From Chloroflexota bacterium (GTDB lineage Bacteria; Chloroflexota; Dehalococcoidia; UBA2247; JAUWOP01): a DNA stretch of 64,000 bases. The stretch is taken from NCBI GenBank assembly GCA_030612045.1, contig JAUWOP010000001.1, positions 26,767 to 90,766 of the forward strand, read 5' to 3'. The notes under the pieces are model-generated. The model searched no databases. It saw only the letters and a program-made list of their open reading frames with translations, and had not been told where the DNA came from. Shown here in pieces: positions 9,646 through 58,185 of the stretch. Position 1 is the first letter of the stretch. Each line of letters opens with the position of its first letter. The translations under genes were made by a program, and so were the position numbers.

Positions 9646-10740
9646 ATGCAGGTTACACTAAGCGTGATCAAAGCTGATGTTGGAGGGTTCGTAGGTCATT
9701 CCAGCTCACATCCTGAAGTCTTAGATAAAGCTAGGAAATCGATGGATAAAGCTAAGAAACAAGGAATGCTCATTGATTATCATGTTACTCGCTGCGGAGA
9801 TGACCTGCAGTTGATTATGACCCATGAGATGGGGGAAAATAATGGTGCTATACACAAACTGGCATGGGATACCTTCCTGGAGTGTACTGAGGTTGCTAAG
9901 CGGCTGAAGCTACATGGAGCAGGTCAGGACCTCCTTAGTGACGCCTTTTCGGGTAATGTAAAGGGAATGGGTCCCGGGGTAGCCGAGATGCAGTTTGAAG
10001 AGAGAGAGGCTGAGACCATAATTATCTTTATGGCAGATAAGACTTCATCTGGAGCATGGAATTTGCCCCTCTATAAGATGTTCGCTGACCCATTTAATAC
10101 TATTGGACTGGTTATCGCCTCCAATATGCATAAGGGGTTTTCTTTCGAGGTACATGATGTTAAGGGACATAAGAAGATTGTGTTCCATGCCCCTGAAGAA
10201 ATCTATGATATGTTGGTCTTCATGGGAGCACCAAGCCATTATGCTGTCAAGGCAGTGTATCACCGTGAGACTGGAGAGATTGCTGCTGTCTCCTCTACTG
10301 AGCGTCTTTCTTTAATTGCGGGAAGGTATGTGGGTAAGGATGACCCTGTGTGTGTAGTTCGCTCCCAGGGACAATTTCCTGCCGTGGGAGAAATCTTGGA
10401 GCCCTTCACTATGCCAACATTGGTAGAAGGTTGGATGCGTGGTTCACACCATGGACCATTGATGCCAGTAGCTGTGGAGCAATCTAATCCTAGTCGTTTC
10501 GATGGTCCCCCTAGGGTGATTTCCCTGGGGTTCCAGATTGCCAATGGTATGCTGGTAGGACCCCGAGATATGTTCGATGACCCCTCCTTCGATGATGCTC
10601 GCCACCTGGCAAACCAGGCTGCTGAGTACATGAGGCGACATGGACCCTTTGAGCCCCATCGCCTTCCCCTGGAAGAAATGGAATACACTACTATGCCTCA
10701 GGTGATGAAAAAACTGGAGGTAAGGTTTACAGATTTGTGA
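9646..10740 (+). CDS. fbp: Fructose-1,6-bisphosphate aldolase/phosphatase (class V FBPase, archaeal type)
   Basis: MQVTLSVIKADVGGFVGHSSSHPEVL...DYHVTRCGDDLQLIMTH is the characteristic N-terminus of the bifunctional FBP aldolase/phosphatase. Confidence 0.8.
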   Translation: MQVTLSVIKADVGGFVGHSSSHPEVLDKARKSMDKAKKQGMLIDYHVTRCGDDLQLIMTHEMGENNGAIHKLAWDTFLECTEVAKRLKLHGAGQDLLSDAFSGNVKGMGPGVAEMQFEEREAETIIIFMADKTSSGAWNLPLYKMFADPFNTIGLVIASNMHKGFSFEVHDVKGHKKIVFHAPEEIYDMLVFMGAPSHYAVKAVYHRETGEIAAVSSTERLSLIAGRYVGKDDPVCVVRSQGQFPAVGEILEPFTMPTLVEGWMRGSHHGPLMPVAVEQSNPSRFDGPPRVISLGFQIANGMLVGPRDMFDDPSFDDARHLANQAAEYMRRHGPFEPHRLPLEEMEYTTMPQVMKKLEVRFTDL

Positions 10741-11360
10741 CTGCTAAACTACTCCTCGCTACAGGAAATGCTGCTAAACAGCAGGAGTATTTTCAGCTAC
10801 TGGAAGGTATTCCCTTCCAGCTCACTACCCCTGCGAGGGAGAATATCAAGTTAGTAGTGGCAGAGACAGGCACTACACTGGAGGAGAATGCTCGTCTTAA
10901 GGCTGTTGCCTATACCGTAGTAAGTGGTTTACTAACTCTGGCTGATGACTCTGGTCTGGAGGTAGTAGTATTGGGAGGAGCACCAGGGGTTCTTTCGGCA
11001 AGGTATGCAGGAGATAATGCCTCTGATGCAGATAAGGTTTCATATCTTCTTTCACAGCTTAGTGGAGTACCAATGGCGGAGCGTCTGGCCCACTTCCGAT
11101 GCATTATTGCTATCGCTCATCCCACAGATAAGATGGAGCTTTGTGAGGGAGTGTGTTGTGGTCTCATTACCCTTGAACCAAGAGGAGAACATGGCTTTGG
11201 CTATGACCCGATTTTTTATCTGCCCAAATTGGGTAAGACAATGGCTGAGCTTACTATGGATGAGAAGAATAAGCTGAGTCATAGAGGGATAGCTGCCCGA
11301 AAAGCCAGAGCCATCTTAGAATCTTACATAAGTCCATGTCTACCAGGAGGTGTGATGTGA
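10737..11360 (+). CDS. rdgB: Non-canonical purine NTP pyrophosphatase (RdgB/HAM1 family)
   Basis: LLLATGNAAKQQEY...DDSGLEV...FGYDPIFY are Ham1 family motifs. Overlaps fbp by 4 nt. Confidence 0.8.
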   Translation: MTAKLLLATGNAAKQQEYFQLLEGIPFQLTTPARENIKLVVAETGTTLEENARLKAVAYTVVSGLLTLADDSGLEVVVLGGAPGVLSARYAGDNASDADKVSYLLSQLSGVPMAERLAHFRCIIAIAHPTDKMELCEGVCCGLITLEPRGEHGFGYDPIFYLPKLGKTMAELTMDEKNKLSHRGIAARKARAILESYISPCLPGGVM

Positions 11361-12604
11361 AATTGACGTGTCTTCAAGAAAATCTGAACAAGGGGTTAGG
11401 GGTTGTTAGTCGAGCAGTAGCAACGCGGACAACCTTGCCCATTACTAATAATGTTCTTCTTTCTGCAAAGGAGTCTCGCCTCAAGCTATCAGCTACTAAC
11501 CTGGAGATGGCTGTAATGTGCTGGGTTGGAGCCAAGGTAGAAGAGGAGGGGGCAATCACGGTTCCTGCTCGACTCTTTATGGAGCTTGTTAATTCCCTGC
11601 CCAATGATTTGATAGGATTGAGTCTTTCTCGACATGTATTAGAACTGAAATGCGCTCGTCTTCATTCTCACATTAATGGGATAGATGCCGAGGACTTCCC
11701 TCCTATTTCTGTAGTTGAGGATGGCTTACGAATCCAAATTGAGGCTGAAGCACTCCGAACAGCCATTAGCCATGTGGTTTTTGTTACTGCTTCGGAGGAC
11801 ACTCGACCAGTGCTCACCGGTGTTCATATTGAGATAGAGAATGATACTATAACATTAGCTGCTGCTGATGGATTCAGATTAGCAGTGTATCAATTACCGC
11901 TGACTTCCTCGGTGGATGAGAAGGTGGAATTTATTGTCCCTGGACGTACCTTGACGGAATTACTTCGGCTTATTGGCGAGCAAGAAGAGCCAGTAGAGTT
12001 AATTGTTAATCCTGCCAGAGGACAGGCTTCATTCAAGCTAAAGAATGCTGAGATGACAACGCAACTTATTCAAGGGAGTTTCCCTAACTACAGACAACTT
12101 ATCCCCCAAAACTATGAAACCCGAGCAGTGGTTAATGTTAAGGATTTTCTCAAAGCAGTAAAAACCGCATCTATATTCGCCCGAGATGCAAGCGGAATAG
12201 TGCGTCTCATGATAAGTATGAATGCTGAGGGTGAAGGCACTTATGCTGCAGACCTGGGGTCGGGTAATCATGGGGGAAACAGTTCGGAATCGGAAACTAC
12301 CATTACACAGGTGGCTCCGAGAAGTGAAGCATTGGCATTGGGCAAAGTAAGCATAATTTCCTCTTCGGAACAGGTAGGTGACAATGTAAGTGAGATAGAT
12401 GCCAGTGTGGAAAGGCTCTCTCCAGAGCAAAGTGAGCTGGCTAGGATTGCCTTCAATTGCAGGTATCTTAGTGAAGTGCTGAGTGCCCTTCACGAGGAAC
12501 AGATAGCATTGGAGATTACCACCCCCTCAAGTGCAGGAGTTATTCGTCCTGTAGGCTCTGATAACTATGTCTACGTGATTATGCCAATGTTTGTTCAGTG
12601 GTGA
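11336..12604 (+). CDS. dnaN: DNA polymerase III beta sliding clamp, carrying an extra low-complexity insertion of about 50 aa in the C-terminal domain; the start is possibly GTG 11357, which has a better RBS
   Basis: KLTCLQENLNKGLGVVSRAVATRTTLPITNNVLL...LKLSATNLEM is canonical DnaN. 422 aa against the usual ~370. The extra GEGTYAADLGSGNHGGNSSESETTITQVAPRSEALALGKVSIISSSEQVGDN segment is the insertion. AGGAGG lies 6 nt upstream of GTG 11357. Confidence 0.8.
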   Translation: MSTRRCDVKLTCLQENLNKGLGVVSRAVATRTTLPITNNVLLSAKESRLKLSATNLEMAVMCWVGAKVEEEGAITVPARLFMELVNSLPNDLIGLSLSRHVLELKCARLHSHINGIDAEDFPPISVVEDGLRIQIEAEALRTAISHVVFVTASEDTRPVLTGVHIEIENDTITLAAADGFRLAVYQLPLTSSVDEKVEFIVPGRTLTELLRLIGEQEEPVELIVNPARGQASFKLKNAEMTTQLIQGSFPNYRQLIPQNYETRAVVNVKDFLKAVKTASIFARDASGIVRLMISMNAEGEGTYAADLGSGNHGGNSSESETTITQVAPRSEALALGKVSIISSSEQVGDNVSEIDASVERLSPEQSELARIAFNCRYLSEVLSALHEEQIALEITTPSSAGVIRPVGSDNYVYVIMPMFVQW

Positions 12605-18050: not shown

Positions 18051-19118
18051 GTGATTCAACGACACTATTCTCAGAGCATTCAAATAGGGAAGGTAACTAT
18101 TGGCGGTGACGCCCCTATCGTAGTACAGTCCATGACCAAGACTGATACCAGGGATGCTGCTGCCACTATCGAGCAAATTCGCCGACTGGAGGAGTGTGGC
18201 TGTGAACTCGTTCGGGTAGCAGTCCCCGACCTCAAGGCAGCTCAATCTATAGCCGAGATAAAGAAGGGTATCAACATCCCCCTGGTTGCCGATATCCACT
18301 TTGACTATCGGCTTGCGCTGGCATCTCTTGAGCATGGCGCCGATGCTCTGCGTCTTAACCCGGGAAACCTTCGTGACCCTGAGCACATTGCTGCTGTGGT
18401 TCAAGCTGCTAAAGAGAGGCAGACACCTATTCGTATCGGAGTGAATGCAGGGAGTATGCCACCAGATGAAGGCTGTCAGTCATCAGCTATCAGCTCTACG
18501 ACAGGCATCGTTAGCCGGATGGTTGAGGCTGCTATGGCACAGATACGTTTACTGGAGAGCCTGGACTTTAATCTCATCAAGGTATCCCTCAAGGCTTTCG
18601 ATGTGCCTACCACTGTTGAAGCCTACAGGGCTATTGCTTCTAGAATACCCTATCCACTACACCTGGGGATAACTGAGTCGGGTCTGACTCTACCAGGGTC
18701 TATCCGTAGCGCTATAGGACTGGGGATTCTACTCTCGGAGGGTATTGGGGACACCATCAGAGTCTCCTTGACTGACACCCCTGAGAAGGAAGTATTTGCT
18801 GCCTACGAGATATTAAAGTCTCTCAACCTGAGGGAACATGGGCCCACCCTCGTAAGTTGCCCTACCTGCGGCAGGTGTGAAATTGACCTGATAAGTCTGG
18901 CTAAGAAGGTGGGGGAGAGATTGCAAGGGGTAAGTAAACCCATCAAGGTAGCTGTGATGGGTTGCGTAGTAAATGGGCCTGGCGAAGCCAGGGAGGCTGA
19001 TGTAGGTATTGCTGGTGGAAAGGGCAAGGGGGCTCTATTTAGAAAAGGCAAGGTGGTGCGCACTCTACCAGAGGAAGAACTCCTGAGTGCCCTGATGTCG
19101 GAGATAGAAGACCTCTAA
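18051..19118 (+). CDS. ispG: 4-hydroxy-3-methylbut-2-en-1-yl diphosphate synthase (GcpE)
   Basis: IGKVTIGGDAPIVVQSMTKTDTRD..., C-terminal CPTCGRCEID Fe-S cysteines, GTG start with RBS gaggagaagag. Confidence 0.9.
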   Translation: MIQRHYSQSIQIGKVTIGGDAPIVVQSMTKTDTRDAAATIEQIRRLEECGCELVRVAVPDLKAAQSIAEIKKGINIPLVADIHFDYRLALASLEHGADALRLNPGNLRDPEHIAAVVQAAKERQTPIRIGVNAGSMPPDEGCQSSAISSTTGIVSRMVEAAMAQIRLLESLDFNLIKVSLKAFDVPTTVEAYRAIASRIPYPLHLGITESGLTLPGSIRSAIGLGILLSEGIGDTIRVSLTDTPEKEVFAAYEILKSLNLREHGPTLVSCPTCGRCEIDLISLAKKVGERLQGVSKPIKVAVMGCVVNGPGEAREADVGIAGGKGKGALFRKGKVVRTLPEEELLSALMSEIEDL

Positions 19119-27140: not shown

Positions 27141-28235
27141 TCAAATATACTCCACCCGGCACCCTCTTCTTCTCATTACCCCCAGTGTTATAGAAAGTGC
27201 TTCGGCATCATGGTCACAGGAAGATAGCACTATCATTGCCGAAGGTAGAGGGTGCATCCCGGAGACCTTTTGCAATGCCTGTGCTGCAGGGTGATTCTCT
27301 GCTCCTCCACAAATAGCTCTATATTCTAATTCCAGGAGTGCTGCTAGTTTCTTCGCTGCCTCAGTCTCAGCTTCCTTCAGTCGATTCAGGGTTTGCCTCA
27401 ATATTTGGATGTTAGGTGGTTGGAGGAACCTAACCCCAAGTTCAACTATTATTATCTGTGGTATCAGTTGCAGCGCTTTCTCAAGTGCTGCTGTAGGGGG
27501 CATGGTAGGGGTTACTTCTATAACCTCCTGATGGTTATATGCTGCCAGTATCACAGGAATGGAATTTCTCGCCAGAGTCATCACAGTGGAGACAAGATTG
27601 AGCGCCAGTTTATCAGCCGCCTCAGCATCACTTACCGCCAGGTTGACCACCACTACAACAGAGCCTCGCGGTGCCTCCAGATATTCCTTCACCACCAGAC
27701 TCCTGAGTTTTGCCGTATGCTTCCAATCTATGTTTATCAAACTATCGCCAGGTTGAAAGAGACGGCTGCTATAGTACTCATCTTTGGCACCATACCTGAG
27801 TTTGGTAGATATTATAGTGGCAGTTCCACCTCCTCTTCCTGCTTCTCCTGCCAGGTATCTTCTTGCCAGCCACTCAGCATATCTAGCTCGGGGAATCACT
27901 ATCATCTCTGCCAGTTCCAGCCTCTGATTTGTCTGAATTAACCCCCATGGGTCAAGGATAGATGCCTGGAGTAATAACTGGGAGGGACCCGCCAGGGGTG
28001 GGGTGAGGAACGCCTCTATACTTACCTCATCTTTAATCTCACACTCGGTGGGTGAGGTGAGCCTAACCCATGGATAGGGGGAACTTAGTTTGGCACGCAG
28101 TGGCATACCATGATGGTTCCAAGCCTTTCCGGAAAGTGATTTTGTCTCACCAGCTACTACCTTGATTTCAGTCTGAGTACTCTCTAAAGGTGTAGTGGAA
28201 AGGTGATGCATGGTGCGGTAGGTGAGCGCCAGCAA
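27141..28235 (-). CDS. DUF58 domain protein (MoxR-partner, vWA-like)
   Basis: FQPGDSLINIDWKHTAKLRSLVVKEY is the DUF58 signature region. Confidence 0.65.
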   Translation of the reverse strand: MLALTYRTMHHLSTTPLESTQTEIKVVAGETKSLSGKAWNHHGMPLRAKLSSPYPWVRLTSPTECEIKDEVSIEAFLTPPLAGPSQLLLQASILDPWGLIQTNQRLELAEMIVIPRARYAEWLARRYLAGEAGRGGGTATIISTKLRYGAKDEYYSSRLFQPGDSLINIDWKHTAKLRSLVVKEYLEAPRGSVVVVVNLAVSDAEAADKLALNLVSTVMTLARNSIPVILAAYNHQEVIEVTPTMPPTAALEKALQLIPQIIIVELGVRFLQPPNIQILRQTLNRLKEAETEAAKKLAALLELEYRAICGGAENHPAAQALQKVSGMHPLPSAMIVLSSCDHDAEALSITLGVMRRRGCRVEYI

Positions 28236-28692
28236 GTAGGCTGCCAGTAAGGCTCATAGTATAGTCACCTAGCAAGAGGGCAATAACCAGCACCACACTC
28301 AGAAACAGCGCCATTGCCTTGAATACAGGGGTAGGTTTTCTGCCCTCCACAGTGGTAGGTTGACCGACATCGGTCAACCCTACCCAAAGGGGGATAAAGG
28401 GCTCTCCTTGAGCATTCCTCCTCAGCTCCCAGTCCAGCAGAGGAATAGCAGGTATTACTATAAAGGCAGACGCTATGCTAAAAGGTTGAGGTATTATTGC
28501 TTTGAAGGTCAGTGGCAATAATGCCAGGCTCAGCAAAATCAGGGGTAGCCCTACTCTGGGACTGACTGTCTTCCACAGAAAGTATGCCTGTAACAAGAAT
28601 AGTGCTATTGCTACCGCAGAGTAGGGCATTGGTGAGAGCACCATCACCACTACTGTGGCAAGCATGATGTATATGCGAGAGAAAAGGTTCAT
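28168..28692 (-). CDS. Hypothetical integral membrane protein (about 4 TM) between moxR and the DUF58 gene; contains an in-frame family C palindrome
   Basis: Strongly hydrophobic helices. Palindrome C2 encodes the loop GLTDVGQPTTVEG. Confidence 0.45.
   Translation of the reverse strand: MNLFSRIYIMLATVVVMVLSPMPYSAVAIALFLLQAYFLWKTVSPRVGLPLILLSLALLPLTFKAIIPQPFSIASAFIVIPAIPLLDWELRRNAQGEPFIPLWVGLTDVGQPTTVEGRKPTPVFKAMALFLSVVLVIALLLGDYTMSLTGSLLAGAHLPHHASPFHYTFREYSD
28355..28386. repeat. Family C palindrome, copy C2 (centre CA, one extra C), in frame inside the membrane-protein ORF
   Basis: ggtaggttgaccga-ca-tcggtcaaccctaccc. Confidence 0.65.
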
Positions 28693-28758: not shown

Positions 28759-29709
28759 TTACACTCCCCTGGGCACAGGGACCCTCTCTATAGCTCTCTC
28801 AATAATGTCTCGTGGAGTTATCTCTCCCACAATATCTGTCTCCTGATTCAGGTGAATGCGGTGCTCCACTACCGGGCGGATAAGCCGCTTCACATCATCT
28901 GGTATCACGAAATCCCGTTCTTGTAAGAAGGCTAGCGCCCGTGCCCCCTTATATAGAGAGATGCTGGCTCTAGGTCCAGCACCACTGGAGACATCCTCAT
29001 CTCCCCGAACATGATTTACTATTCTAACAATATAATTCTCTATCTCAGGGGAAACAAACACCTTGGTGACAGCCTTTCTAAATTCTATCACCTCAGCAGG
29101 GCTTATCACTGGCTCTATCTGGAGGATGTCAAGGCTGTCAATCCTGCGAAGTATCTCGACTTCCTCTGCCCCCGGAGGATAGTTGCTCTCTGCATAGAGC
29201 ATGAAACGGTCAGCTTGAACCTCAGTAAATGGGTAGGTTCCTTCAGCTCCATATTTGAGCTGGGTGGCAATAACCAGGAATGGTTGTGGGAGGGTGTGGG
29301 TCACCCCTTCTACTGTTACCTGCCCCTCCTGCATTGCCTCCAGTAGAGCTGATTGAGTTCGCGGGGTAGTAAGATTTAGCTCATCAGCTAACACCACATT
29401 AGCAAAAATGGGTCCTGGGATGAACCGTGACTTACCATTGAGGTCGTAAATATTGAACCCTGTGATGTCACTGGGGAGTATGTCAGGGGTGAATTGAATG
29501 CGTTTGAATTCACCACCCAGGGCGAGGGCGAAGCTCTTAGCAATAGTAGTCTTGGCAGTGCCGTTGGCACCCTCAATGAGGATATGTCCCCCGCTGAGGA
29601 TTGCCACCCCCAGTAGCTCCTTCAGCTCTGCCAGCCCCACCACTACACGGGAGACCTCATCCACTATCTTCCCAAATGCTTCAAGTGATACCTTAGGTGT
29701 TTCAATCAT
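28759..29709 (-). CDS. MoxR-family AAA+ ATPase
   Basis: HILIEGANGTAKTT Walker A, DELNLTTPRTQSALLEAMQE Walker B / sensor, length 316 aa. Confidence 0.85.
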   Translation of the reverse strand: MIETPKVSLEAFGKIVDEVSRVVVGLAELKELLGVAILSGGHILIEGANGTAKTTIAKSFALALGGEFKRIQFTPDILPSDITGFNIYDLNGKSRFIPGPIFANVVLADELNLTTPRTQSALLEAMQEGQVTVEGVTHTLPQPFLVIATQLKYGAEGTYPFTEVQADRFMLYAESNYPPGAEEVEILRRIDSLDILQIEPVISPAEVIEFRKAVTKVFVSPEIENYIVRIVNHVRGDEDVSSGAGPRASISLYKGARALAFLQERDFVIPDDVKRLIRPVVEHRIHLNQETDIVGEITPRDIIERAIERVPVPRGV

Positions 29710-29727
29710 AGTTCACTCCTTCTGGTA

Positions 29728-29769
29728 GTTGTCAGCATTCAGTTATCAGCCATCAGCATCCAGCTTTTG
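29728..29769. repeat. Family D repeat, copy D4 (immediately upstream of the moxR start)
   Basis: gttgtcagcattcagttatcagccatcagcatccagc. Confidence 0.4.
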
Positions 29770-29807
29770 TATAAGTCCTGTAAACATGCGTTTCACTTCC
29801 TGTAAGC

Positions 29808-29917
29808 GTTCACCCCCTTTCATGTCGTTGCGAGGAGCGTGGCGACGAAGCAATCTCTTCCACCCCACCGAGATTGCTTCGCCTTCGGCTCGCAATGACA
29901 CAGGTGAACGGTTACCA
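29808..29917. repeat. Family A element, copy A2, with GTTCACC...GGTGAAC termini
   Basis: gttcaccccctttcatgtcgttgcgag...ctcgcaatgacacaggtgaacggttacc. Confidence 0.7.
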
Positions 29918-30023
29918 CTTCTTTTACTTGACCATCCAATGCCTCATGGGTTTTTATATCCAGGTATCCCAACTCTTGAGACAGAAGTAGATGATATTCG
30001 TAAGTGTTCACCTGCTCCCTATC

Positions 30024-30106
30024 AAATCCCCCTTAGTCCCCCTTTTCTAAAGGGGGAAAAGAATGTAAGCCTCCCCCTTTTCTAAAGGGGGACTAAGGGG
30101 GATTTT
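30024..30106. repeat. Family B composite element, copy B2 (two CCCCCTTTTCTAAAGGGGG hairpins inside an outer inverted repeat)
   Basis: aatcccccttagt-cccccttttctaaaggggg-...-cccccttttctaaaggggg-actaagggggatt. Identical over more than 80 bp to the reverse complement of copy B5 at 52330. Confidence 0.7.
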
Positions 30107-30206
30107 TCTTCTCGGGGAAAGGATAGCGTAGCCTTATATACAGACAGTACCATTCCGTGAGCCTTCTGCCATACTTCCAAGCTTCTAAAATCTCTCATTT
30201 TCAGTT

Positions 30207-30327
30207 GCCGTTCACCCATGTCATTGCGAGCGAAGCGAAGCAATCTCACCCCCCCCACCACCGAGATTAGCTTGCGTCTTCGTCGCTACACTTCTCGCAA
30301 TGACATGAGAGTGGGTGAACACTTACC
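30207..30327. repeat. Family A element, copy A3, flanked by a 13-bp direct repeat attttcagttgcc
   Basis: gttcacccatgtcattgcgagcgaagcgaagcaatctc-acccccccaccacc-gagattagcttgcg...tctcgcaatgacatgagagtgggtgaacacttacc. The direct repeat sits at 30198-30210 and 30328-30340. Confidence 0.65.
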
Positions 30328-30328
30328 A

Positions 30329-30423
30329 TTTTCAGTTGCCAGCTATCTTTTTAGCTTTCAGTTATCAGCTTTCAGCCTCCACGCCCCTGCTGATGGCTGA
30401 ATGCTGATAGCTGACAGCTAAAT
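30329..30423. repeat. Family D repeat cluster, copy D5, running up to the stop of the DUF4350 gene
   Basis: ttcagttgccagctatctttttagctttcagttatcagctttcagcc...gctgatggctgaatgctgatagctgacagct. Confidence 0.45.
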
Positions 30424-31334: not shown

Positions 31335-31428
31335 TCTTCCCTAAGGGGGGGGGAATGGAAGTCCCCCTTCCCTAAAGGAAGATCCCATCAGTCCCCCTTT
31401 TCTAAAGGGGGATTTAGGGGGATTACAA
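31335..31428. repeat. Family B element, copy B3 (contains a G9 tract)
   Basis: ccctaagggggggggaatggaagtcccccttccctaaagg...gtcccccttttctaaagggggatttagggggatt. Confidence 0.55.
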
Positions 31429-31716
31429 ATTCTCATACACTCTTTCGACAGCTCCACTAAGGTTCTCAAACACCTCTCTATCTGAAAACCGCAAGACTTT
31501 CAATCCATGCTCCTTCATATAATCATCCCTAATCTTATCCTTCTTAACCCCCTCATCATTGTAGTGCTGGCTACCATCAATTTCAATAATTAGCTTTGCT
31601 TTTGGACAGTAGAAATCGACTATATAGTTACCTATAATCCTCTGCCTATAAAATTGATACCCTTTCAACTGCTTTCTCCTCACCTTAGACCAAAACAGCC
31701 TTTCTGCATCAGTCAT
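31423..31716 (-). CDS. DUF559 / Vsr-like PD-(D/E)xK endonuclease-domain protein (97 aa)
   Basis: ...YQFYRQRIIGNYIVDFYCPKAKLIIEIDGSQH...LRF matches the D...EIDG DUF559 core. Confidence 0.6.
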   Translation of the reverse strand: MTDAERLFWSKVRRKQLKGYQFYRQRIIGNYIVDFYCPKAKLIIEIDGSQHYNDEGVKKDKIRDDYMKEHGLKVLRFSDREVFENLSGAVERVYENL

Positions 31717-31837: not shown

Positions 31838-33796
31838 CTACGCCAGCCCACTCTTTAGCCCCCTTTGCACCTGCTGAGACAGGTTCTCGGCTCGGGTAAT
31901 CTCCTCATCCCCGGGTGCAACCGCAGAATACAACGCCTTTTCTGCTATTGCTGTCAGTATAGTGAAGTCCTCCTCCACATCTCCTAAACCAGTGCGGCAG
32001 TCTTTCAGAAACTCCCTCATAGTCATATGAGGCTCAAATGCCACACTGCTGACTGCCTCTACTATCTCCACCGCATCATAGTATGCCACCACAGCCCCTC
32101 CCCCTTGGGGTCGTTGTGGGGTTGCATTGCTCGCCTCATCTTTCGCTAACTGCTCTACGGGTGGCGCGACCGTAACTATTTGACCTGGTAGAGATATATC
32201 CACTTGTCCCCTTCTGCGGGTGTACAACACTACACCAATGCATACCAGTGCGACAAAGAGGAATCCGATGTTGATAATATTAGCTACAAAGGTTTTTACC
32301 TCGGTTTGAGTCTGGTCATACCATGGCTCGGCAGGAATGACCGTCACCTCTACAGCCTGATTTCCCATGTAAGTAGGGTCCAGAGGAATATGGAGAACAG
32401 CTCTAAACTCACCATCTTCTCCAGTAATTGTCTCCACTGATTCCCCTCTCAGTGTTAAGGTTACTACGGCACCCGGTACTGGAGCCCCTCCAGAAAGGAC
32501 ACATCCCGTTATCGTAATATCACTGGAGGAGAATACGATATAGGGAGAGCGGACTTCAACCTGGGTCACCATCTTTGTTATCGTTAAGGTTATTTCTTCC
32601 GATACACCAGCATATCGCTGCCAGGAGGCAACAGAGACATTAAGGGTGTGGTCTCCTACGCTTGTATCAGACGGTGGTGTCAATATCAGGGTGAATTGCC
32701 CATCTTCTCCAGTTTTACCCGAAGCCTGAGGTAGAGACCCATCATCAAGGAATACCTCCACTATCCTTCCGTTCAGAGAAGAGCCATCAGAGGTTATTCG
32801 CCCGTTGACACTCATGGGGAATCCCGGGTGTGCTTCCTCCGGAACCGTCAATTCCAGATAGGTGTCGTAGAAACCTATCTGGATAGTTTCCGTAGCAGAA
32901 GTTCCCTGATAGATATCTTTGTCACTATCTGCTGGCGTATACACTGCCCTGACTTCCATTGTGGAGACATACTTGTAGGGGACAGTCAAACTCTTACTGT
33001 ATTTGCCCTCCTCATCAGTTGTCACTGTTCCCTGGAGCGAGTCTACTATGTAGAGGGCTATTACCCTACTACCCAAGGGGCTATTATCCTCACTATCCTT
33101 ATCCTTAAGCATTCCAGAAAGTGTCACCTCATTGCCCACAAATATCTCCTCGGCGGGCACATTAAGACTCAGTTGCGTAGGGGTGAGGTCTGCCTCTTTT
33201 TCTCTCACCTGCTCATCGAGTTGCTCCTGAAGGGATTCATATCGGTCTTTTAGGTCATGCACCTTCTGCACCATACCATCCATATTATCATACGCCTTCT
33301 TCAAAAGACCGGAAGCGGCAGAGGCGAAGACTCCCACCTTTTCACCCAGTGTCCTGGTAGCTGTAGTGAGCTCTGCCAGCAGATTCTCCGCCTCAGTAAT
33401 CTCCGTCCCCACTTCGTCGAGTTTATCCTGAGCCTCACTGAGACGATTCTGGCTAAGAAGGGATGCTGCCTCATCAAGCAGGGTATCTATACTATCCAGT
33501 TTGGCGGAGACATCAGATGTCAGGCTGTTGTAGAGATTGATTATATCCCTCAAATCGTCAGGGATATTAGCTCCATCCAACTGTGCCAGCAGGTTATCAA
33601 CATCAGCAAAGTTTCCTTCAGAGATCAGCCCCATAATCTCACCGTAGTAGTTGAGTAATGAGATAGCACCAAAGGTATCCGTTGCCGTCTCAGGGTCTTC
33701 ATGCGGACTGAAGGGTAACCCCGCCAGCACTGGTGCCCCGGGAAGCAGAGTAGCTATCAGTATAATGAGTAATAAAATGGTGATTAATTTCTTCAT
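31838..33796 (-). CDS. Large secreted protein anchored by one C-terminal TM helix: signal peptide, about 180 aa of coiled coil, three CarboxypepD_reg/Ig-like beta domains, TM, and a cytoplasmic DUF4129-like tail
   Basis: MKKLITILLLIILIATLLPGAPVLAG signal; heptad-rich LxxL region; repeats such as ITITGCVLSGGAPVPGAVVTLTLRGESVETITGEDGEFRAV; TM IINIGFLFVALVCIGVVLY followed by RRRG; tail ...YYDAVEIVEAV...MTMREFLKD...FTILTAIAEKALYS. Confidence 0.55.
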   Translation of the reverse strand: MKKLITILLLIILIATLLPGAPVLAGLPFSPHEDPETATDTFGAISLLNYYGEIMGLISEGNFADVDNLLAQLDGANIPDDLRDIINLYNSLTSDVSAKLDSIDTLLDEAASLLSQNRLSEAQDKLDEVGTEITEAENLLAELTTATRTLGEKVGVFASAASGLLKKAYDNMDGMVQKVHDLKDRYESLQEQLDEQVREKEADLTPTQLSLNVPAEEIFVGNEVTLSGMLKDKDSEDNSPLGSRVIALYIVDSLQGTVTTDEEGKYSKSLTVPYKYVSTMEVRAVYTPADSDKDIYQGTSATETIQIGFYDTYLELTVPEEAHPGFPMSVNGRITSDGSSLNGRIVEVFLDDGSLPQASGKTGEDGQFTLILTPPSDTSVGDHTLNVSVASWQRYAGVSEEITLTITKMVTQVEVRSPYIVFSSSDITITGCVLSGGAPVPGAVVTLTLRGESVETITGEDGEFRAVLHIPLDPTYMGNQAVEVTVIPAEPWYDQTQTEVKTFVANIINIGFLFVALVCIGVVLYTRRRGQVDISLPGQIVTVAPPVEQLAKDEASNATPQRPQGGGAVVAYYDAVEIVEAVSSVAFEPHMTMREFLKDCRTGLGDVEEDFTILTAIAEKALYSAVAPGDEEITRAENLSQQVQRGLKSGLA

Positions 33797-52671: not shown

Positions 52672-52992
52672 ATGCCTACAGAAGTTACAAGCAGCATAGG
52701 AACCATCGAGACTGAGGCTGAGAAGATACTTGTGGAGGCTAGAGCTGAAGTCAGTAAGATTTTGCTTAAAGCTAAAGAGGAGAGCGTCAAGATTCTGTCC
52801 TCTGAATTACCCATGGATGAAACTAAGGTGGAGTGTGAGCATATTATACAGAGTGCGAGAGAAGAAGCTGGTAGAAAAGCTGAAGATTCCAGAGAAAAAG
52901 CCTCCAAAATCAGGGCTGATATTAATAACAGGTTAGAGGGAATTGTGGAGCGTATGGCAGCTATCATCGCTACTGGGGTAGACCCCAGGTGA
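52672..52992 (+). CDS. atpH: A/V-type ATPase subunit H (small coiled-coil subunit)
   Basis: 106-aa charged helical protein at the head of an H-I-K-E-C-F-A-B-D operon. Confidence 0.55.
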   Translation: MPTEVTSSIGTIETEAEKILVEARAEVSKILLKAKEESVKILSSELPMDETKVECEHIIQSAREEAGRKAEDSREKASKIRADINNRLEGIVERMAAIIATGVDPR

Positions 52993-54992
52993 TACCTGTA
53001 TTTATTAACTCCCCTGAACCCATGGCTAAGACCAGGGTAATGACAACGAAGGATTACTCTGAGAAAGCCCTTAAAACCTTGCACAGGCTTGGAGTGCTTC
53101 ATGTCGAGGAGAGTGAAGAGCTAAATCCTGTAGATAGAGCGGCTATTAGCTCCCAGCGGAGGGAAGTTAGCAAGCTATTAGCATGTATGGACAGCGTGCT
53201 GGCTTACATACCGGAGAAGGAAAGGGTGGCTCTGGGAGAGGATATTATAGTAACGTATGTTCGGCCCTTCAGTGAACTCGACAGCGAAGTAGCAGCATTA
53301 TACACCAGACTTACTAACTTGCACCAGGGAATCGTAGGGCACGATGAGGAGCTTAACTGGCTAATAGAACTAAAGAGATATTTTGGTGCTCTCGCCGGAC
53401 AAAGTGATTTTAGGTTAAAGGATTTAAGTTTTTCAGGAGGATACCTTTTCTCCCGGGTCTTTGCGCTTCCCAGCGAGATATATGAAACTTCGCATGATAA
53501 GATTAAGGGTTACCTGCTGGTAAGTAATACCGCCACTGTGGAAAATGAGACTGTTCTCTATGTAATTGCCAGGACTAAAGACCAGAAGATTGTAGAGTCT
53601 CTAGTTACAGATACCGCAGGTAAAATCCTCAAGGTACCAGATGAAGATTTAACACTGAGAGAATTTCTGGGAGCAGTTGATGGTAAGATTCACGACCTTG
53701 AAGAAGAACTGTCAAGACTCCATGCGGAGCTCCAGAGTAAGACTAGAGAGAACCTGGAGAGAATTGCCCTTCTAAGAGAAACATTGCTAGCAGAGAACGA
53801 GAGGCTCTCAGTCCTGGAGAAAGCCTGCGAAGCAAAGTATGTAACATTAGTTGAAGGATGGATTCCGGAGAGTAATGTTGAATCTGCCATTTCTGAACTT
53901 AAAGAAAATATAGGCTATGTGTTTGTTGACATCAGAGAGCCAGAACAAGCAGAGGAGCCTCCTACCAGGCTGAGGAACCCATCAGGATTTAAGCCATTCC
54001 AGAGTGTGGTAGACCTCTTCGGTACTCCTAAATACCGAGAGTGGGACCCAACACCGATAGTAGCCTACTCCTTCGCTATCTTCTTTGGTCTCATGGCAGC
54101 CGATGTGGTTTATGCTATCGGCATTATACTGGGCACAAGATTTCTTCTAGGCAAATTCGTTGATGACCCTGAAACCGATGGCTTTAAGCTATTTCAGAAA
54201 TTGCTTTATACCTGTGGTGGGGTTGCCCTGGTTTTTGGCTTGCTTACCGGAAATTACCTGGGGGATATGCCTAGTAAGTTTTTTGGAGTTGAATCACTGG
54301 CACTTGTAGAAGGGGTCCAACAAATGTTAGGAGACCCTCTGAAGTTTATTGTGCTCTCATTAGTGCTGGGTTTTATCCACGTAAACATAGCTCATCTGCT
54401 GGGGTTTATCAGGGGAGTAAGGGAAAAGGGAGTAGCGCCTGGTAAGATTGGGCTGTTTGCGCTTCAAATTGGTGGGATACCCTGGGTCATACACAACCTG
54501 CTTGGCATTGACATCCCGTTGCTGAGTACCTTAGCATACAGCATTCTTCTGTACCTTGTAGTGGTGGGCGTAATCTTGGTTATTGTTTCTTCTGTTATGC
54601 AGAAGGGTGCTTTCCTAGGAGGTATTTTCTGGATATTTGATATAACCGGGATACTAGGTGATATTATGTCTTATTGTAGAATAGCCGGGGTAGGTTTAGC
54701 TACATTTTATCTGGCATTCTGTTTCAATCTGATAGCAGACTTGATAGGAGGTGCTATCTCAGGGATAATACCCGGGGTAGTAGGGATTGTAATCAGCATC
54801 ATTGTAATGGTGGTCATATTGCTTGTTCTCCATGCCCTTAATCTATTTCTCACTGGTCTGGCGTCCTTTATACATTCACTCAGGTTATGCTTTGTAGAGT
54901 TCATGTTCAAGTTCTTTGAAGGAGGGGGCAGGGAGTATAGCCCATTTCGGCTAAGTACCAGGACATCGGTGTTGGTTAAGGGAGGAGCATGA
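52989..54992 (+). CDS. atpI: A/V-type ATPase subunit I (membrane a-subunit)
   Basis: 667 aa with a soluble N-terminal half and a C-terminal multi-TM domain. Position in operon. Confidence 0.8.
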   Translation: MIPVFINSPEPMAKTRVMTTKDYSEKALKTLHRLGVLHVEESEELNPVDRAAISSQRREVSKLLACMDSVLAYIPEKERVALGEDIIVTYVRPFSELDSEVAALYTRLTNLHQGIVGHDEELNWLIELKRYFGALAGQSDFRLKDLSFSGGYLFSRVFALPSEIYETSHDKIKGYLLVSNTATVENETVLYVIARTKDQKIVESLVTDTAGKILKVPDEDLTLREFLGAVDGKIHDLEEELSRLHAELQSKTRENLERIALLRETLLAENERLSVLEKACEAKYVTLVEGWIPESNVESAISELKENIGYVFVDIREPEQAEEPPTRLRNPSGFKPFQSVVDLFGTPKYREWDPTPIVAYSFAIFFGLMAADVVYAIGIILGTRFLLGKFVDDPETDGFKLFQKLLYTCGGVALVFGLLTGNYLGDMPSKFFGVESLALVEGVQQMLGDPLKFIVLSLVLGFIHVNIAHLLGFIRGVREKGVAPGKIGLFALQIGGIPWVIHNLLGIDIPLLSTLAYSILLYLVVVGVILVIVSSVMQKGAFLGGIFWIFDITGILGDIMSYCRIAGVGLATFYLAFCFNLIADLIGGAISGIIPGVVGIVISIIVMVVILLVLHALNLFLTGLASFIHSLRLCFVEFMFKFFEGGGREYSPFRLSTRTSVLVKGGA

Positions 54993-55008
54993 AGGTGAGG
55001 AGTAAAAG

Positions 55009-55491
55009 GTGCTGATTGACCCATCTTCTCTGGCTACATTGGGTGGGGGAGTAGCGCTAGGCGGCGGACTACTAGGTGCATCAATAGGTATAGCCATTGC
55101 TGCTTCTGCTGGGACAGCCACATTGTCTCAGGATCGCTCACAGCTCAGGAATGTAGTTATATTGGCAGCTTTACCAATGTCCCGATCTTTTTATGGGATC
55201 ATCCTGCTAATAATTATCCTCACAGTAGTAGTTCCTAAGTTAGATGCAATGTCAGGGGGTGGGGGGGGTAATGGCTTCGCTGTATTTGCCTGTGGTATCG
55301 GGGCAGCTTTGGCTCTAGGTGTCTCAGGAGCATACCAGGGCTCTGTATGTGCTGCAGGCATTTCATACTTACCTAAGACAAAGGGACGAATACTGGCTAA
55401 TGCTGTAATGTTAGCTGTGTTTGTTGAACTTATAGCTGTATTGGGGCTGGTGTTTACTATACTAGCGCTGAGTATGCTGAATCTTATGTAG
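55009..55491 (+). CDS. atpK: A/V-type ATPase proteolipid subunit K (4-TM, duplicated hairpin), copy 1; contains a G5-T-G8 tract
   Basis: Gly-rich TM helices, conserved Glu in VFVELIAVLGL. The G8 run at 55261-55268 encodes SGGGGGNG. Confidence 0.8.
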   Translation: MLIDPSSLATLGGGVALGGGLLGASIGIAIAASAGTATLSQDRSQLRNVVILAALPMSRSFYGIILLIIILTVVVPKLDAMSGGGGGNGFAVFACGIGAALALGVSGAYQGSVCAAGISYLPKTKGRILANAVMLAVFVELIAVLGLVFTILALSMLNLM

Positions 55492-55548
55492 AAAAGAGGG
55501 CTAAACTGTAGCCACCATAAGTAATCATACAATGAAGGGAGGCATGAA

Positions 55549-56028
55549 ATGGTAATTGACCCAGGGTCCTTGGCAGTTCTTGGAGGTGCTATAGCACTAG
55601 GTGGAGGCTTGGCAGGTTCATCAATAGGGATAGCCAGGGCCGGAGTTAATGGAGTAGCTACGCTGGCTGAAGAGCCGGGGCAACTCAGGAATGTTATTGT
55701 TCTGGCATCTCTACCAATGACACAAACCTTTTATGGACTTATAGTGCTGATACTTATTCTAACCACAGTAAAAGGTAATGTGGAGGCACCAGAGGCTTGG
55801 GCTGGGGCGGGTTTTGCTATATTTGCCTGTGGGATTATAGCTGCCTGTGCGGAATGCTTCTCCGGAGCATATCAGGGCTCCGTGTGTGCTTCAGGTATCG
55901 CAATGTTAACTAAAACGAAGGGAGCGATACTCACTAATGCCATGATGCTAGCAGTCTTTGTGGAATTAATAGGTGTACTAGGACTGGTATTCACCATACT
56001 GGCAGTAAGTATGCTAGGTCTCATGTAA
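55549..56028 (+). CDS. atpK: A/V-type ATPase proteolipid subunit K, copy 2 (tandem paralog)
   Basis: Same architecture; VFVELIGVLGL. Confidence 0.8.
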   Translation: MVIDPGSLAVLGGAIALGGGLAGSSIGIARAGVNGVATLAEEPGQLRNVIVLASLPMTQTFYGLIVLILILTTVKGNVEAPEAWAGAGFAIFACGIIAACAECFSGAYQGSVCASGIAMLTKTKGAILTNAMMLAVFVELIGVLGLVFTILAVSMLGLM

Positions 56029-56038
56029 GGAGTGCCAC

Positions 56039-56632
56039 ATGAATGGAATGGAGAAGATAAGCGAGGCTATCCTAGAGAAGGTGAAAGGGGATGCCCGGAA
56101 TATAGTAGCTGATGCTGAGGAAAAGGCACGTCAGGAAATAGAGAAAGCCAAAAAGCAGAGAGAGAAAAGACTTGAAGAAGAGGAGCATAAGCTAGTACGG
56201 GAAGCTAAAGAGGAGGCTGCTCGAATTCTGGCTCAAGCCTCTATAGCAGCCCGCCAGGAGTTGGTAAGGGCTAAGACTGACATGATTGATAAGGTAATTG
56301 ACAGAGTAAGAAGTGTTCTGTCAGAAACCTCAAGCAATGCAGCTACGCTACTTAGCCTGGCTCAGGAGGCTTATGATGCCCTCGGTGTCGACAAGGTCAG
56401 GGTCTATGTCGCCACCAGGGATATAGATACGACACGAAGAGCCATAGGAACGAACAAAGAGCTAGCTGAGAAGATAGTAGATATTAGAGAGTTCGACTGT
56501 GTAGGGGGATTGATAGTAGAGAGTCTCGATGGGAAAATGAGGATAGATAATACCTACGGGGCTAGGCTTGAGATATTATTACCCAAGATTCTGCCTGAGG
56601 TAAGTAATGACCTCTTTAGCCAAATCAGGTAG
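56039..56632 (+). CDS. atpE: A/V-type ATPase subunit E
   Basis: Charged helical N-terminus with a C-terminal globular part. 197 aa. Operon position. Confidence 0.65.
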   Translation: MNGMEKISEAILEKVKGDARNIVADAEEKARQEIEKAKKQREKRLEEEEHKLVREAKEEAARILAQASIAARQELVRAKTDMIDKVIDRVRSVLSETSSNAATLLSLAQEAYDALGVDKVRVYVATRDIDTTRRAIGTNKELAEKIVDIREFDCVGGLIVESLDGKMRIDNTYGARLEILLPKILPEVSNDLFSQIR

Positions 56633-56707
56633 GTAACAGATAGACACAGAGTTAGAGATAGAGAAGGTAGAGTAGTCTCTGCCTCTATCTTAATTCTCTA
56701 TCTGGAA

Positions 56708-58113: not shown

Positions 58114-58120
58114 ATAGATG

Positions 58121-58170: not shown

Positions 58171-58185
58171 TGTGGAGGCATTGAA

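Follow-up and report, generated by a model that had tools for sequence, protein, structure and literature searches.

The gene for a 652-aa membrane protein, found in a 64-kb window of Chloroflexota DNA (the window being the whole stretch that was analysed), belongs, as a standard component, to a conserved but uncharacterised envelope cassette of seven genes with a MoxR ATPase, common to Dehalococcoidia-type bacteria and Bathyarchaeia-type archaea. We propose, with moderate confidence, that its product forms an extracellular arm on an envelope complex driven by MoxR/DUF58, to which it would be coupled through a cytoplasmic DUF4129 tail. The evidence comprises the gene order around the family, the predicted domain architecture of the protein and a comparison with MoxR–DUF58 systems described earlier.

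The cassette and its distribution

The plus-strand translation of the gene interval is full of stop codons, and the minus strand holds the 652-aa open reading frame (Table 1). The stop codon of the upstream 88-aa gene shares bases with the ATG of the 652-aa gene in an ATGA overlap, through which the 652-aa gene is probably translationally coupled to this DUF8044 gene. Genes for DUF4350, MoxR and DUF58 follow downstream on the same strand, in agreement with the MoxR-operon membership proposed in a preliminary description of this DNA. In the window, two insertions break up the operon, a DUF559 gene and 713 bp of repeat-rich sequence, and what is a single DUF58 gene in relatives is here split into two reading frames that overlap by 68 nt in different frames; because of these three features, the MoxR/DUF58 system may be impaired in the organism from which the window derives. 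The positive-inside rule would place MoxR, the soluble domains of DUF58 and DUF7982, and the DUF4129 tail on the cytoplasmic side. Against a cytoplasmic DUF58, Makarova et al. call the vWA/DUF58 subunit 'likely secreted', that is, opposite MoxR across the membrane (PMC5898192). The gene content of the window is bacterial (DnaN, the MEP pathway, RNase III and MutL), and in a rough NJ tree the 652-aa protein clusters with a Chloroflexota clade.

Table 1 Features of the 652-aa gene and of its cassette in the window.
Feature	Coordinates	Strand	Basis or remark
652-aa gene, whole	31838..33796	minus	ATG start; stop codon 31838-31840
Predicted Sec signal peptide, residues 1-25	33722..33796	minus	MKK, hydrophobic core, VLA|G; hydropathy and (-3,-1) rule
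PHEDP motif, residues 31-35	33692..33706	minus	Alignment of 109 relatives; disordered in AF2
Extracellular helical head (predicted), residues 44-201	33194..33667	minus	AF2: two short and three long amphipathic helices (36-43 residues)
Ig-like repeat 1, residues 205-310	32867..33184	minus	Copy-number-variable spacer module, 0-8 copies in relatives
Ig-like repeat 2, residues 311-410	32567..32866	minus	Weak Big_1 match; AF2, hhalign
Ig-like repeat 3, residues 411-505	32282..32566	minus	CarboxypepD_reg (PF13620), 40.9 bits
TM helix, residues 506-529	32210..32281	minus	Hydropathy, AF2; RRRG (528-531) across its cytoplasmic end
Disordered cytoplasmic linker (predicted), residues 530-566	32099..32209	minus	13% mean identity, pLDDT about 33
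Cytoplasmic three-helix DUF4129 domain (predicted), residues 567-652 (86 aa)	31841..32098	minus	Pfam, AF2
Cassette gene 1, DUF7982 protein, 249 aa	34056..34805	minus	N-terminal TM hairpin and soluble domain of ~195 aa, probably cytoplasmic
Cassette gene 2, DUF8044, ~88 aa	33793..34059	minus	3 TM helices
DUF559 (Vsr-like endonuclease) gene, 97 aa	31423..31716	minus	Between 652-aa gene and DUF4350; outside conserved cassette
Cassette gene 4, DUF4350 protein, 299 aa	30423..31322	minus	N-terminal signal anchor, acidic ectodomain, C-terminal TM helix; 81 bits
Cassette gene 5, MoxR-type AAA+ ATPase	28759..29709	minus	AAA_3 (170 bits) and AAA_lid_2
Cassette gene 6a, 174-aa polytopic membrane ORF	28168..28692	minus	Counterpart of N-terminal TM region of relatives' single DUF58 protein (~510 aa)
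Cassette gene 6b, DUF58 (vWA-like) soluble part, 364 aa	27141..28235	minus	23.8 bits, cutoff 23.4

An exhaustive profile search revealed at least 623 clusters (50% identity) at E<1e-30 that share the architecture of the protein. A word-indexed search with the whole protein yielded 11 matches, a gross underestimate compared with the profile search, and a scan of the GTDB species-representative genomes with the 652-aa protein alone found no relative, so the species of the window is not itself represented there. With a degenerate DNA pattern built on the tail motif T-x-R-E-[FY]-x14-F-x-x-L-T-x-x-x-E-x-x-L-Y, whose recall was estimated, we also scanned a collection of 185,579 species. Among the matches listed, at least 119 species-representative genomes carried the gene: 92 of Chloroflexota, mostly Dehalococcoidia, and 27 of archaea, mostly Bathyarchaeia. 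The named hosts among these matches are all Chloroflexota or archaea, three records being labelled only 'uncultured bacterium/archaeon', and no named wall-bearing phylum is among them.

For synteny we examined 121 loci, 119 of them with 8-kb blocks. The order DUF7982>DUF8044>652-aa gene homologue>DUF4350>MoxR>DUF58 was found wherever neighbours were detectable (118/119 blocks, with three local rearrangements). The exceptions were L060, at which no neighbours were detected, L033 and L065, in which DUF4350-MoxR-DUF58 is inverted upstream, and L005, in which DUF7982 lies past DUF58. Detection across the 121 loci was highest for DUF4350 (115), followed by MoxR (98), DUF8044 (86), DUF7982 (83) and DUF58 (68), and at L001, L002, L122 and L124 separate gene calls and Pfam labels agreed with the cassette order. 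The preliminary description had called a stalk of this size unusual for a MoxR-operon component, a view that does not survive a family of this size and the same cassette slot in at least 119 genomes; Ig-like or FN3 surface proteins adjoining MoxR-DUF58 had, moreover, already been described (PMC5898192; PMC8430577).

PADLOC matched no defence-system model to the cassette proteins, returning chance-level coiled-coil matches for the 652-aa protein a weak mad8 match for MoxR (E=4.5e-5) and no match for the remaining cassette proteins; an anti-phage defence system with a MoxR-like ATPase was rejected on this result. A literature search on DUF7982 and DUF8044 returned nothing, and the sole experimental treatment of DUF4129 found concerns a type III effector with a weak KEGG match, which is not relevant here.

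Architecture of the 652-aa protein

A Kyte-Doolittle scan detected only two hydrophobic segments in the protein, at residues 1-26 and about 505-527. From the N-terminus, the predicted domain order runs from the signal peptide through a three-helix-bundle head and three Ig-like repeats to the TM helix, a disordered linker and the DUF4129 tail, so arranged that the product would be a type I membrane protein with the helical head on an Ig-like stalk outside and the tail inside, its sidedness being taken from the positive-inside rule. The ectodomain is acidic and contains one Cys only. Pfam and NCBIfam searches found no known ligand-binding or signalling domain in the protein, NCBIfam giving sub-threshold coiled-coil noise and nothing else, and a PDB sequence search found no relative of it, of DUF7982 or of DUF4350.

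The N-terminus is consistent with a Sec/SPase I signal peptide: among 109 full-length relatives, 76 have A/G/S at position -1 of the cleavage site and 83 have V/A/I/T/G at position -3. PHEDP, which lies about six residues past the predicted cleavage site, is more conserved than any other motif of the family (H in 104/109, E in 97/109 and the second P in 106/109). It belongs to a conserved, disordered N-terminal peptide with the family consensus PHE(D/N)P. An ATCUN-type N-terminal metal site was considered for this motif and rejected, since its His would stand at about position 7 of the mature chain and not at position 3.

The preliminary description had read about 180 residues behind the signal peptide as a heptad-rich coiled coil. 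AF2 predicts helices at residues 44-60, 63-74, 80-115, 119-154 and 159-201, and a hydrophobic periodicity of 3.5 residues is significant in each long head helix (p<=0.0005 versus shuffles). The heptad phase is broken between the helices, and the periodicity across residues 44-201 as a whole is not significant. In an AF2 model that, like the others used here, draws on a shallow alignment of 10-11 sequences, residues 27-208 fold as a compact domain (pTM 0.73), and the best PDB matches of the head model are single-chain antiparallel three-helix bundles, for example syntaxin Habc and designed three-helix bundles. Because of the phase breaks, the compact model and these matches, the helical region is predicted to form a distal antiparallel three-helix-bundle head rather than an extended coiled-coil stalk, the stalk being formed by the Ig repeats. 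The helices of the original claim and their periodicity thus stand, and its stalk does not. A dimeric or trimeric coiled-coil stalk protein was rejected likewise, as a continuous heptad register is absent over residues 44-201 and the AF2 domain is compact; in an oligomer, the head helices could nevertheless form intermolecular coiled coils instead of the three-helix bundle. No Pfam family matches the head (residues 44-201).

The three repeats that follow are homologous to one another (hhalign probability 97.6-98.2%, E 4e-12 to 3e-14) and are predicted to adopt a beta-sandwich fold (AF2 pLDDT 80-94). Foldseek aligns the AF2 model with PDB entries that contain tandem Ig-like and macroglobulin domains (E about 1e-11; top matches 5irb and 6xi3), and repeat 3 exceeds the Pfam gathering score of CarboxypepD_reg (40.9 versus 32.3 bits). 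Relatives have the layout head-(Ig1)n-Ig2-Ig3-TM-tail with n=0-8, head and tail being always present, and the length differences among them are due to Ig1 copy number only.

Past the TM helix, at least two K/R occur within 12 residues in 114 of the 117 relatives scored. The DUF4129 domain is C-terminal to this helix, and so cytoplasmic by the positive-inside rule, and carries the motifs T-x-R-E-F-L and F-x-x-L-T-x-x-x-E-x-x-L-Y-S. Pfam DUF4129 (PF13559) aligned with residues 571-638 over profile positions 1-66 of 69 (E=6.9e-4), scoring 20.1 bits against a gathering score of 24.8. It was matched at E<=0.01 by 11/11 aligned homologues (best 6.8e-7), and many relatives bear a precomputed PF13559 label; the family as a whole would thus match DUF4129, the window sequence taken alone being sub-threshold. 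A protein search with a tail profile returned only fragments of the 652-aa protein's own family. With these results, most of the architecture given in the preliminary description is retained, namely the signal peptide (as a prediction), the three CarboxypepD_reg or Ig-like beta repeats, on which hhalign, Pfam (for repeat 3), AF2 and Foldseek agree, the single C-terminal TM helix with flanking RRRG, and the DUF4129-like tail.

Conservation is even along the chain, with peaks in Ig1, the tail and the PHEDP segment; mean pairwise identity is 25% for the head, 28% for Ig2 and Ig3, and 34% for the tail. The protein might be read as an adhesin or environmental sensor, whose ectodomain binds a ligand or surface outside and whose DUF4129 tail signals to MoxR/DUF58. 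Its tandem Ig-like domains do resemble adhesin extender regions, as in the two top Foldseek matches, and both adhesion and TNF-alpha binding have been reported for the FN3 protein encoded in a bifidobacterial fn3-MoxR-DUF58-tgm cluster (PMC8430577). However, the head is not hypervariable but about as conserved as Ig2/Ig3, so the pattern is unlike that of a diversifying adhesin tip, and the even conservation of head and tail likewise appears to argue against one. The strictly conserved motifs at the mature N-terminus, the single copy per cassette with no paralogue elsewhere in the 64-kb window, and the searches for ligand-binding or signalling domains point the same way, and we hold an adhesin or sensor to be improbable.

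Relation to known MoxR–DUF58 systems

The arCOG01314/DUF4350 neighbourhood, which combines DUF4350, MoxR, vWA and Ig-protein genes, was predicted to encode a novel secretion or membrane-remodelling complex (Makarova, Galperin & Koonin 2015, PMC5898192). The cassette matches this system, itself a prediction, by gene set rather than by arCOG assignment of its members. Both have DUF4350 (bearing a signal peptide plus a TM helix at the C-terminus), a COG0714 MoxR ATPase and vWA/DUF58, here in a same-strand operon, together with membrane-anchored extracellular Ig-like proteins and small membrane proteins of 2-3 and 5 TM helices (here 2 in DUF7982, 3 in DUF8044 and 4-5 in the N-terminal part of the DUF58 protein). 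DUF1616/pfam07760 'predicted S-layer' genes adjoin the cassette in L001 and L124 and are also present in the neighbourhoods of Makarova et al. That work covered archaea, whereas most carriers found here, among the matches listed, are bacteria (Chloroflexota), and it does not name the DUF4129 tail, the helical head or the order DUF7982>DUF8044>Ig protein. In the bifidobacterial PFNA cluster (pkb2-fn3-MoxR-duf58-tgm), too, a surface protein of Ig-like fold (FN3) is encoded directly upstream of MoxR and DUF58 (PMC8430577). Its beta-sandwich family is a different one, however, and the cluster has a kinase and a transglutaminase and lacks the DUF4350/DUF7982/DUF8044 context.

In Pseudomonas aeruginosa, PA2875 and PA2874 are presumably MoxR and DUF58, and we take the tail of TgpA (PA2873) to be a DUF4129 domain. 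TgpA has a large domain outside the cytoplasm, a single TM helix and a cytoplasmic C-terminal tail of ~100 aa; its gene lies in an operon of four (PA2875-PA2872), and the protein is critical for viability (PMC3507681). That study makes no reference to MoxR. The 652-aa protein shares this ectodomain-TM-tail layout and the operon logic but differs in having no transglutaminase core or DUF3488 membrane domain, its ectodomain being a helical bundle with Ig repeats. A TgpA-type transglutaminase (DUF3488-TGase-DUF4129) was accordingly rejected, as neither PF01841 nor PF11992 matched at E<=0.1 and the ectodomain has one Cys.

DUF4129 is thus carried by different ectodomains, a transglutaminase in TgpA (if its tail is indeed DUF4129) and Ig-like domains here, which would also suit a client rather than a subunit: the 652-aa protein would be the substrate of a MoxR/DUF58 chaperone pair responsible for its folding, insertion or export, with the tail as a recognition tag. 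The disordered linker and the C-terminal position of the tail fit such a role, for which the dependence of RipA export on MoxR1 in M. tuberculosis offers a comparison. MoxR ATPases are, moreover, generally described as chaperones that mature specific complexes (PMC8430577). Yet the stoichiometric operon position points to a stable complex, as does the translational coupling to small membrane subunits, and export is already explained by the Sec signal peptide; a client role therefore seems to us quite improbable.

SlaB, the S-layer stalk of Sulfolobales, combines a Sec signal, beta-sandwich domains and a long helical region with a single C-terminal TM anchor, and is not known to have a cytoplasmic domain or a MoxR operon. 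The 652-aa protein resembles it by architecture only and could by analogy be a pillar of a pseudoperiplasm, a spacer that bridges the gap from the membrane to an S-layer of protein in cells that lack a wall, with the head docked to the S-layer, the number of Ig1 repeats setting the width of the gap and MoxR/DUF58 needed only for assembly. The host range is consistent with this, as no named wall-bearing phylum appears among the matches listed from the 185,579-species collection, although this taxonomic picture comes from one motif-based scan, and Dehalococcoides is described as lacking peptidoglycan and as having an S-layer. Ig1 copy number as the sole source of length variation, the acidic, evenly conserved ectodomain and the nearby DUF1616/pfam07760 genes also favour a pillar. 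Set against these points, no S-layer gene was identified in the 64-kb window, SlaB has its domains in the opposite order to the one here (head distal, Ig proximal), a PDB sequence search and Foldseek gave no sequence or fold match between the two proteins, and it is not obvious why a passive pillar should require an ATPase or a conserved domain in the cytoplasm. We regard such a pillar as unlikely.

Proposed role and significance

We favour the extracellular-arm reading, under which the protein would be exported by its Sec-type signal peptide and anchored by one TM helix. Outside, the three Ig-like domains, spanning perhaps ~12 nm, would bear the three-helix-bundle head (~5-6 nm) and the disordered PHE(D/N)P peptide; inside, a flexible linker would lead to the three-helix DUF4129 domain. 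This tail may be the handle by which a MoxR hexamer, with DUF58 as its adaptor, spends ATP to assemble or remodel the complex, a link to which gene neighbourhood points. The ectodomain would act beside that of DUF4350, and the number of Ig1 repeats would set its distance from the membrane. On these grounds we suggest that the protein is built into an envelope machine, the secretion or membrane-remodelling system predicted by Makarova et al. (2015), as a structural or assembly component and is not a free adhesin. A bolder version, which we think doubtful, makes the cassette an ATP-driven trans-envelope machine of one-membrane, protein-layer, wall-less prokaryotes that was exchanged between Bathyarchaeia and Dehalococcoidia. 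The 652-aa protein would then be an adjustable ruler or pillar in which Ig1 copies set the reach of the head and the DUF4129 tail passes MoxR/DUF58 work across the membrane, for example in S-layer anchoring, assembly or secretion.

For the 652-aa gene itself, the gain lies mostly in a correct annotation and less in a discovery; the gene is a further example of a known, uncharacterised kind. Few prokaryotic gene pairs that lack a known mechanism are as widespread as the MoxR-DUF58 module, and no function has been assigned to DUF4129, DUF4350, DUF7982 or DUF8044. The family described here offers a clean, highly syntenic version of such a module, with two outward ectodomain proteins, four soluble parts that are probably cytoplasmic and an extracellular length that varies by copy number, and its carriers, Dehalococcoidia and Bathyarchaeia, are environmentally dominant, poorly cultivable lineages. 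If the coupling of tail to ATPase is true, the cassette would provide a testable model of how MoxR acts on envelope proteins generally, the TgpA system of Pseudomonas included.

Architecture and topology of the 652-aa protein

A single ATG-initiated open reading frame (ORF) fills the interval of the 652-aa gene, whose plus-strand translation carries many stops, and its ATG overlaps the stop of the preceding 88-aa gene (…TTATGA), an arrangement that usually signals translational coupling. A hydropathy scan revealed just two hydrophobic segments in the protein, residues 1–26 and about 505–527. The first is laid out like a Sec signal peptide, with MKK leading into a hydrophobic core that ends in a Pro/Gly break and VLA↓G; among 109 full-length relatives, the cleavage site carries A, G or S at −1 in 76/109 and V, A, I, T or G at −3 in 83/109. 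The second is directly followed by RRRG, and 114 of the 117 relatives scored have at least two K/R within 12 residues past the transmembrane (TM) helix; the segment between both stretches is strongly acidic (79 D/E versus 30 K/R). Because K/R residues follow the second of only two hydrophobic segments, the positive-inside rule predicts that the N-terminal part lies outside and the C-terminus inside.

Pfam searches returned CarboxypepD_reg (40.9 bits; gathering score 32.3), a weak match to Big_1 and, for the helical region, coiled-coil noise only. The C-terminal tail matched DUF4129 over profile positions 1–66/69 (E = 6.9e-4; 20.1 bits, under the gathering score of 24.8), and because 11/11 aligned homologues match DUF4129 at E ≤ 0.01 (best 6.8e-7), sequence comparison places the tail of the family as a whole in DUF4129. 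The preliminary description was thus accurate as to the signal peptide, helices, three beta repeats, TM helix with RRRG and DUF4129 tail.

Domain boundaries were taken from a full-length AF2 model built on an 11-sequence alignment (mean pLDDT 77). The beta domains resemble tandem Ig-like adhesin extender and complement/alpha-2-macroglobulin MG domains (Foldseek against the PDB, E down to 1e-11) and are mutually homologous (97.6–98.2% probability, E 4e-12 to 3e-14; hhalign of family sub-alignments). The N-terminal helices, here called the head, had been described as a coiled-coil stalk. A 3.5-residue hydrophobic periodicity is significant in each of the three long helices (p ≤ 0.0005), but the heptad register is lost at the helix breaks, so that no continuous register runs through the whole helical region (p = 0.36). 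Modelled separately, residues 27–208 gave a compact fold (pTM 0.73) whose best PDB matches, none better than E = 0.016, were single-chain antiparallel three-helix bundles (syntaxin/Sso Habc, designed bundles and gp41 mimetics). Because of the register breaks, the pTM and these matches, the most plausible reading of the head is a compact bundle measuring about 5–6 nm, borne on the outer end of the three Ig-like domains, rather than an extended coiled-coil stalk; the models are of monomers from shallow alignments, and an oligomer could differ.

Features of the 652-aa protein and its cassette, from upstream to downstream; genes downstream of the 652-aa gene lie on the same strand. Domain limits are from the AF2 model; identity is the mean pairwise value over 69 full-length genome-derived sequences.
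Feature	Window position	Residues	Description	Identity
DUF7982 gene			249 aa, TM hairpin and soluble domain	
DUF8044 gene			about 88 aa, 3 TM helices	
652-aa gene	31838–33796, minus			
PHEDP segment	33692–33706	31–35		33%
Head helices		44–60, 63–74, 80–115, 119–154, 159–201		25%
Beta domains Ig1, Ig2, Ig3		207–308, 312–406, 412–505		35% (Ig1), 28% (Ig2 and Ig3)
CarboxypepD_reg match		428–466		
TM helix		507–529		25%
Disordered stretch		530–566		
Linker				13%
Tail		567–650	three helices	34%
DUF4129 match		571–638		
DUF559 gene	31423–31716, minus		97 aa, Vsr-like endonuclease, 107 bits	
DUF4350 gene			81 bits; signal anchor, acidic ectodomain, C-terminal TM	
713-bp insert	29710–30422		non-coding	
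MoxR gene			AAA_3 (170 bits) and AAA_lid_2	
174-aa ORF			polytopic membrane protein, next after MoxR; the first of the two DUF58 ORFs below	
DUF58	27141–28692, minus		two ORFs, 174 aa and 364 aa	

Family extent, modular stalk and distribution

One near-identical protein turned up in a word-indexed search, together with 10 homologues at 30–36% identity, all of them full length. An exhaustive profile search covering 1.84 billion cluster representatives retrieved 2586 proteins at E ≤ 1e-3, of which 1318 reached E ≤ 1e-10 and 623 reached E ≤ 1e-30; over 100 of the best 150 align end to end at about 640 aa. The family is sizeable and uncharacterised, and the 652-aa protein is typical of it; it shares at most about 35% identity with any genome-derived member. 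Parsing of 160 sequences with sub-domain HMMs gave the architecture head-(Ig1)n-Ig2-Ig3-TM-tail, where n = 1 in 118, n = 0 in 17 and n = 2–8 in 9, the remainder being mostly fragments. Across length variants of 541–1383 aa (P0013, P0017, P0019, P0027 and others) the number of Ig1 copies (0–8) is the sole difference, the longest carrying eight in 1383 aa, and head, Ig2, Ig3, TM helix and tail are invariant. The most conserved motif of the family, P-H-E-(D/N)-P, lies about six residues past the predicted cleavage site (H in 104/109, E in 97/109 and the second P in 106/109 sequences); it is disordered in the AF2 model and may be a docking peptide.

When species-representative genomes were scanned for the tail motif, written as a degenerate DNA pattern, at least 119 stretches matched, each one listed encoding a family member. 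Among the matches listed, 92 carriers are bacterial by record title (91 Chloroflexota, mostly Dehalococcoidia/Dehalococcoidales, and one 'uncultured bacterium'), with no other bacterial phylum represented, and 27 are archaeal, mostly Bathyarchaeia, with Thermococci, Methanosuratincola and Nitrososphaerota MAGs; several archaeal carriers sit on contigs of 0.2–1.7 Mb. In a rough NJ tree, eight diverse archaeal sequences are basal, a 13-member Bathyarchaeia clade falls between two 24-member Chloroflexota clades, and the window protein lies inside one bacterial clade. The nesting of the Bathyarchaeia clade suggests that the seven-gene cassette, which Chloroflexota and archaea share in full, passed between domains at least once, the tree being only indicative.

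The gene content of the window is bacterial, including DnaN (11336–12604), IspG (18051–19118), IspH, RNase III and MutL; archaeal-type genes at 4150–5061, 9646–10740 and 52989–61993 encode a class V fructose-1,6-bisphosphatase (FBPase_3, 614 bits) and a PAC2-family protein, as well as a V/A-type ATPase operon with subunits I, C/AC39, A, B and D.

The cassette and its copy in the window

Among the matches listed, the order DUF7982>DUF8044>family gene>DUF4350>MoxR>DUF58 held in 8-kb blocks wherever these genes were detected, except in three rearranged blocks and one (L060) with no detected neighbours. Detection counts across the 121 loci examined were 115 for DUF4350, 98 for MoxR, 86 for DUF8044, 83 for DUF7982 and 68 for DUF58. 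The DUF8044 and DUF7982 labels come from precomputed Pfam matches on the near-identical contig L002 and on two further loci (L001 and L124); a direct Pfam search of the window proteins gave no match to either.

The window copy carries two insertions. The DUF559 gene, between the 652-aa gene and DUF4350, recurs among the 121 loci only in L002 and in L056, there upstream of the family gene. The 713-bp insert separates DUF4350 from MoxR, genes that overlap in L001. Nested inverted repeats with arm lengths of 49, 34 and 33 nt occur in this insert, along with ORF fragments that we take to be a four-helix-bundle/23S-rRNA-IVS-type ORF (MRDFRSLEVWQKAHGMVLSVYKATLSFPREEK); it resembles MITE-like or small selfish elements that have decayed within the operon. 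In L122 (9739–11271) and L124 (12488–14023), a single ORF of about 510 aa encodes the membrane-anchored DUF58 protein; in the window the protein is split between two ORFs in different frames with a 68-nt overlap, aligning to residues 1–144 and 145–510 of the single form. The identical split occurs in the independently assembled L002, and L001 (13810–15370) is split at another point (291 + 219 aa), reflecting either a frameshift or recurrent gene fission.

Known counterparts and a proposed mode of action

Neighbourhoods of arCOG01314 (DUF4350) contain a MoxR/COG0714 ATPase and a vWA protein that carries an Ig-like domain, alongside membrane-anchored proteins whose Ig-like domains are extracellular and small membrane proteins of 2–3 and 5 TM helices; they were proposed to form a novel secretion system or membrane-remodelling complex (Makarova, Galperin and Koonin 2015, PMC5898192). 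The same authors called pfam07760 (DUF1616) a predicted S-layer or membrane-associated Ig protein (PMC5898192). The window cassette matches the published description in each component, and DUF1616, part of these neighbourhoods, adjoins the cassette in L001 and L124. It lies just upstream there (3145–4809 and 7007–7588, respectively), and in L001 an IS605 OrfB element interrupts it.

We take the tail of Pseudomonas aeruginosa TgpA to be Pfam DUF4129, and PA2875 and PA2874 to be MoxR and DUF58. TgpA, encoded in the operon PA2875–PA2872 and critical for viability, carries a large domain in the periplasm, a sixth TM helix and, at its C-terminus, a tail (PMC3507681). In the bifidobacterial PFNA cluster, an FN3 surface protein immediately precedes MoxR, DUF58 and a transglutaminase (PMC8430577). 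A variable ectodomain joined by one TM helix to a cytoplasmic DUF4129 tail, beside MoxR and DUF58, appears to be a recurring design. Given the arCOG01314, TgpA and PFNA precedents, it is not unusual for a MoxR operon to encode an Ig-like surface protein, contrary to the initial impression. The family's cassette had already been predicted to be an envelope machine.

MoxR has no TM helix, and by the positive-inside rule the soluble domains of DUF58, which follows 4–5 TM helices with R/K-rich loops inward, and of DUF7982, which follows an N-in hairpin, are predicted to face the cytoplasm; the DUF4129 tail would therefore share this face with all three. The only large extracellular parts would be the ectodomains of the 652-aa protein and DUF4350. 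vWA proteins serve as adaptors in MoxR–vWA pairs such as RavA–ViaA and CbbQ–CbbO. In the simplest model, DUF58 would act likewise as adaptor, and the tail would be the handle through which a MoxR hexamer acts to assemble or remodel a membrane complex whose outer part, estimated from domain sizes, would reach about 15–20 nm from the membrane.

The ectodomain may instead be an adhesion or sensing arm, as first suggested, but conservation is even along the chain and the family gene is single copy per genome region; for these reasons an integral part of a machine seems likelier than an adhesin. The machine model has a more specific version, suggested by the carriers, which are Dehalococcoidia and archaea among the matches listed, by Ig1, which behaves like a ruler, and by the predicted S-layer genes nearby: in cells that lack a wall, the protein would be an S-layer or pseudoperiplasm pillar. 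For the window's own gene, little is gained beyond a correct annotation; the points of interest lie at the family level, in the seven-gene synteny between Dehalococcoidia and Bathyarchaeia among the matches listed, the copy-number variation of Ig1 and the PHE(D/N)P motif.
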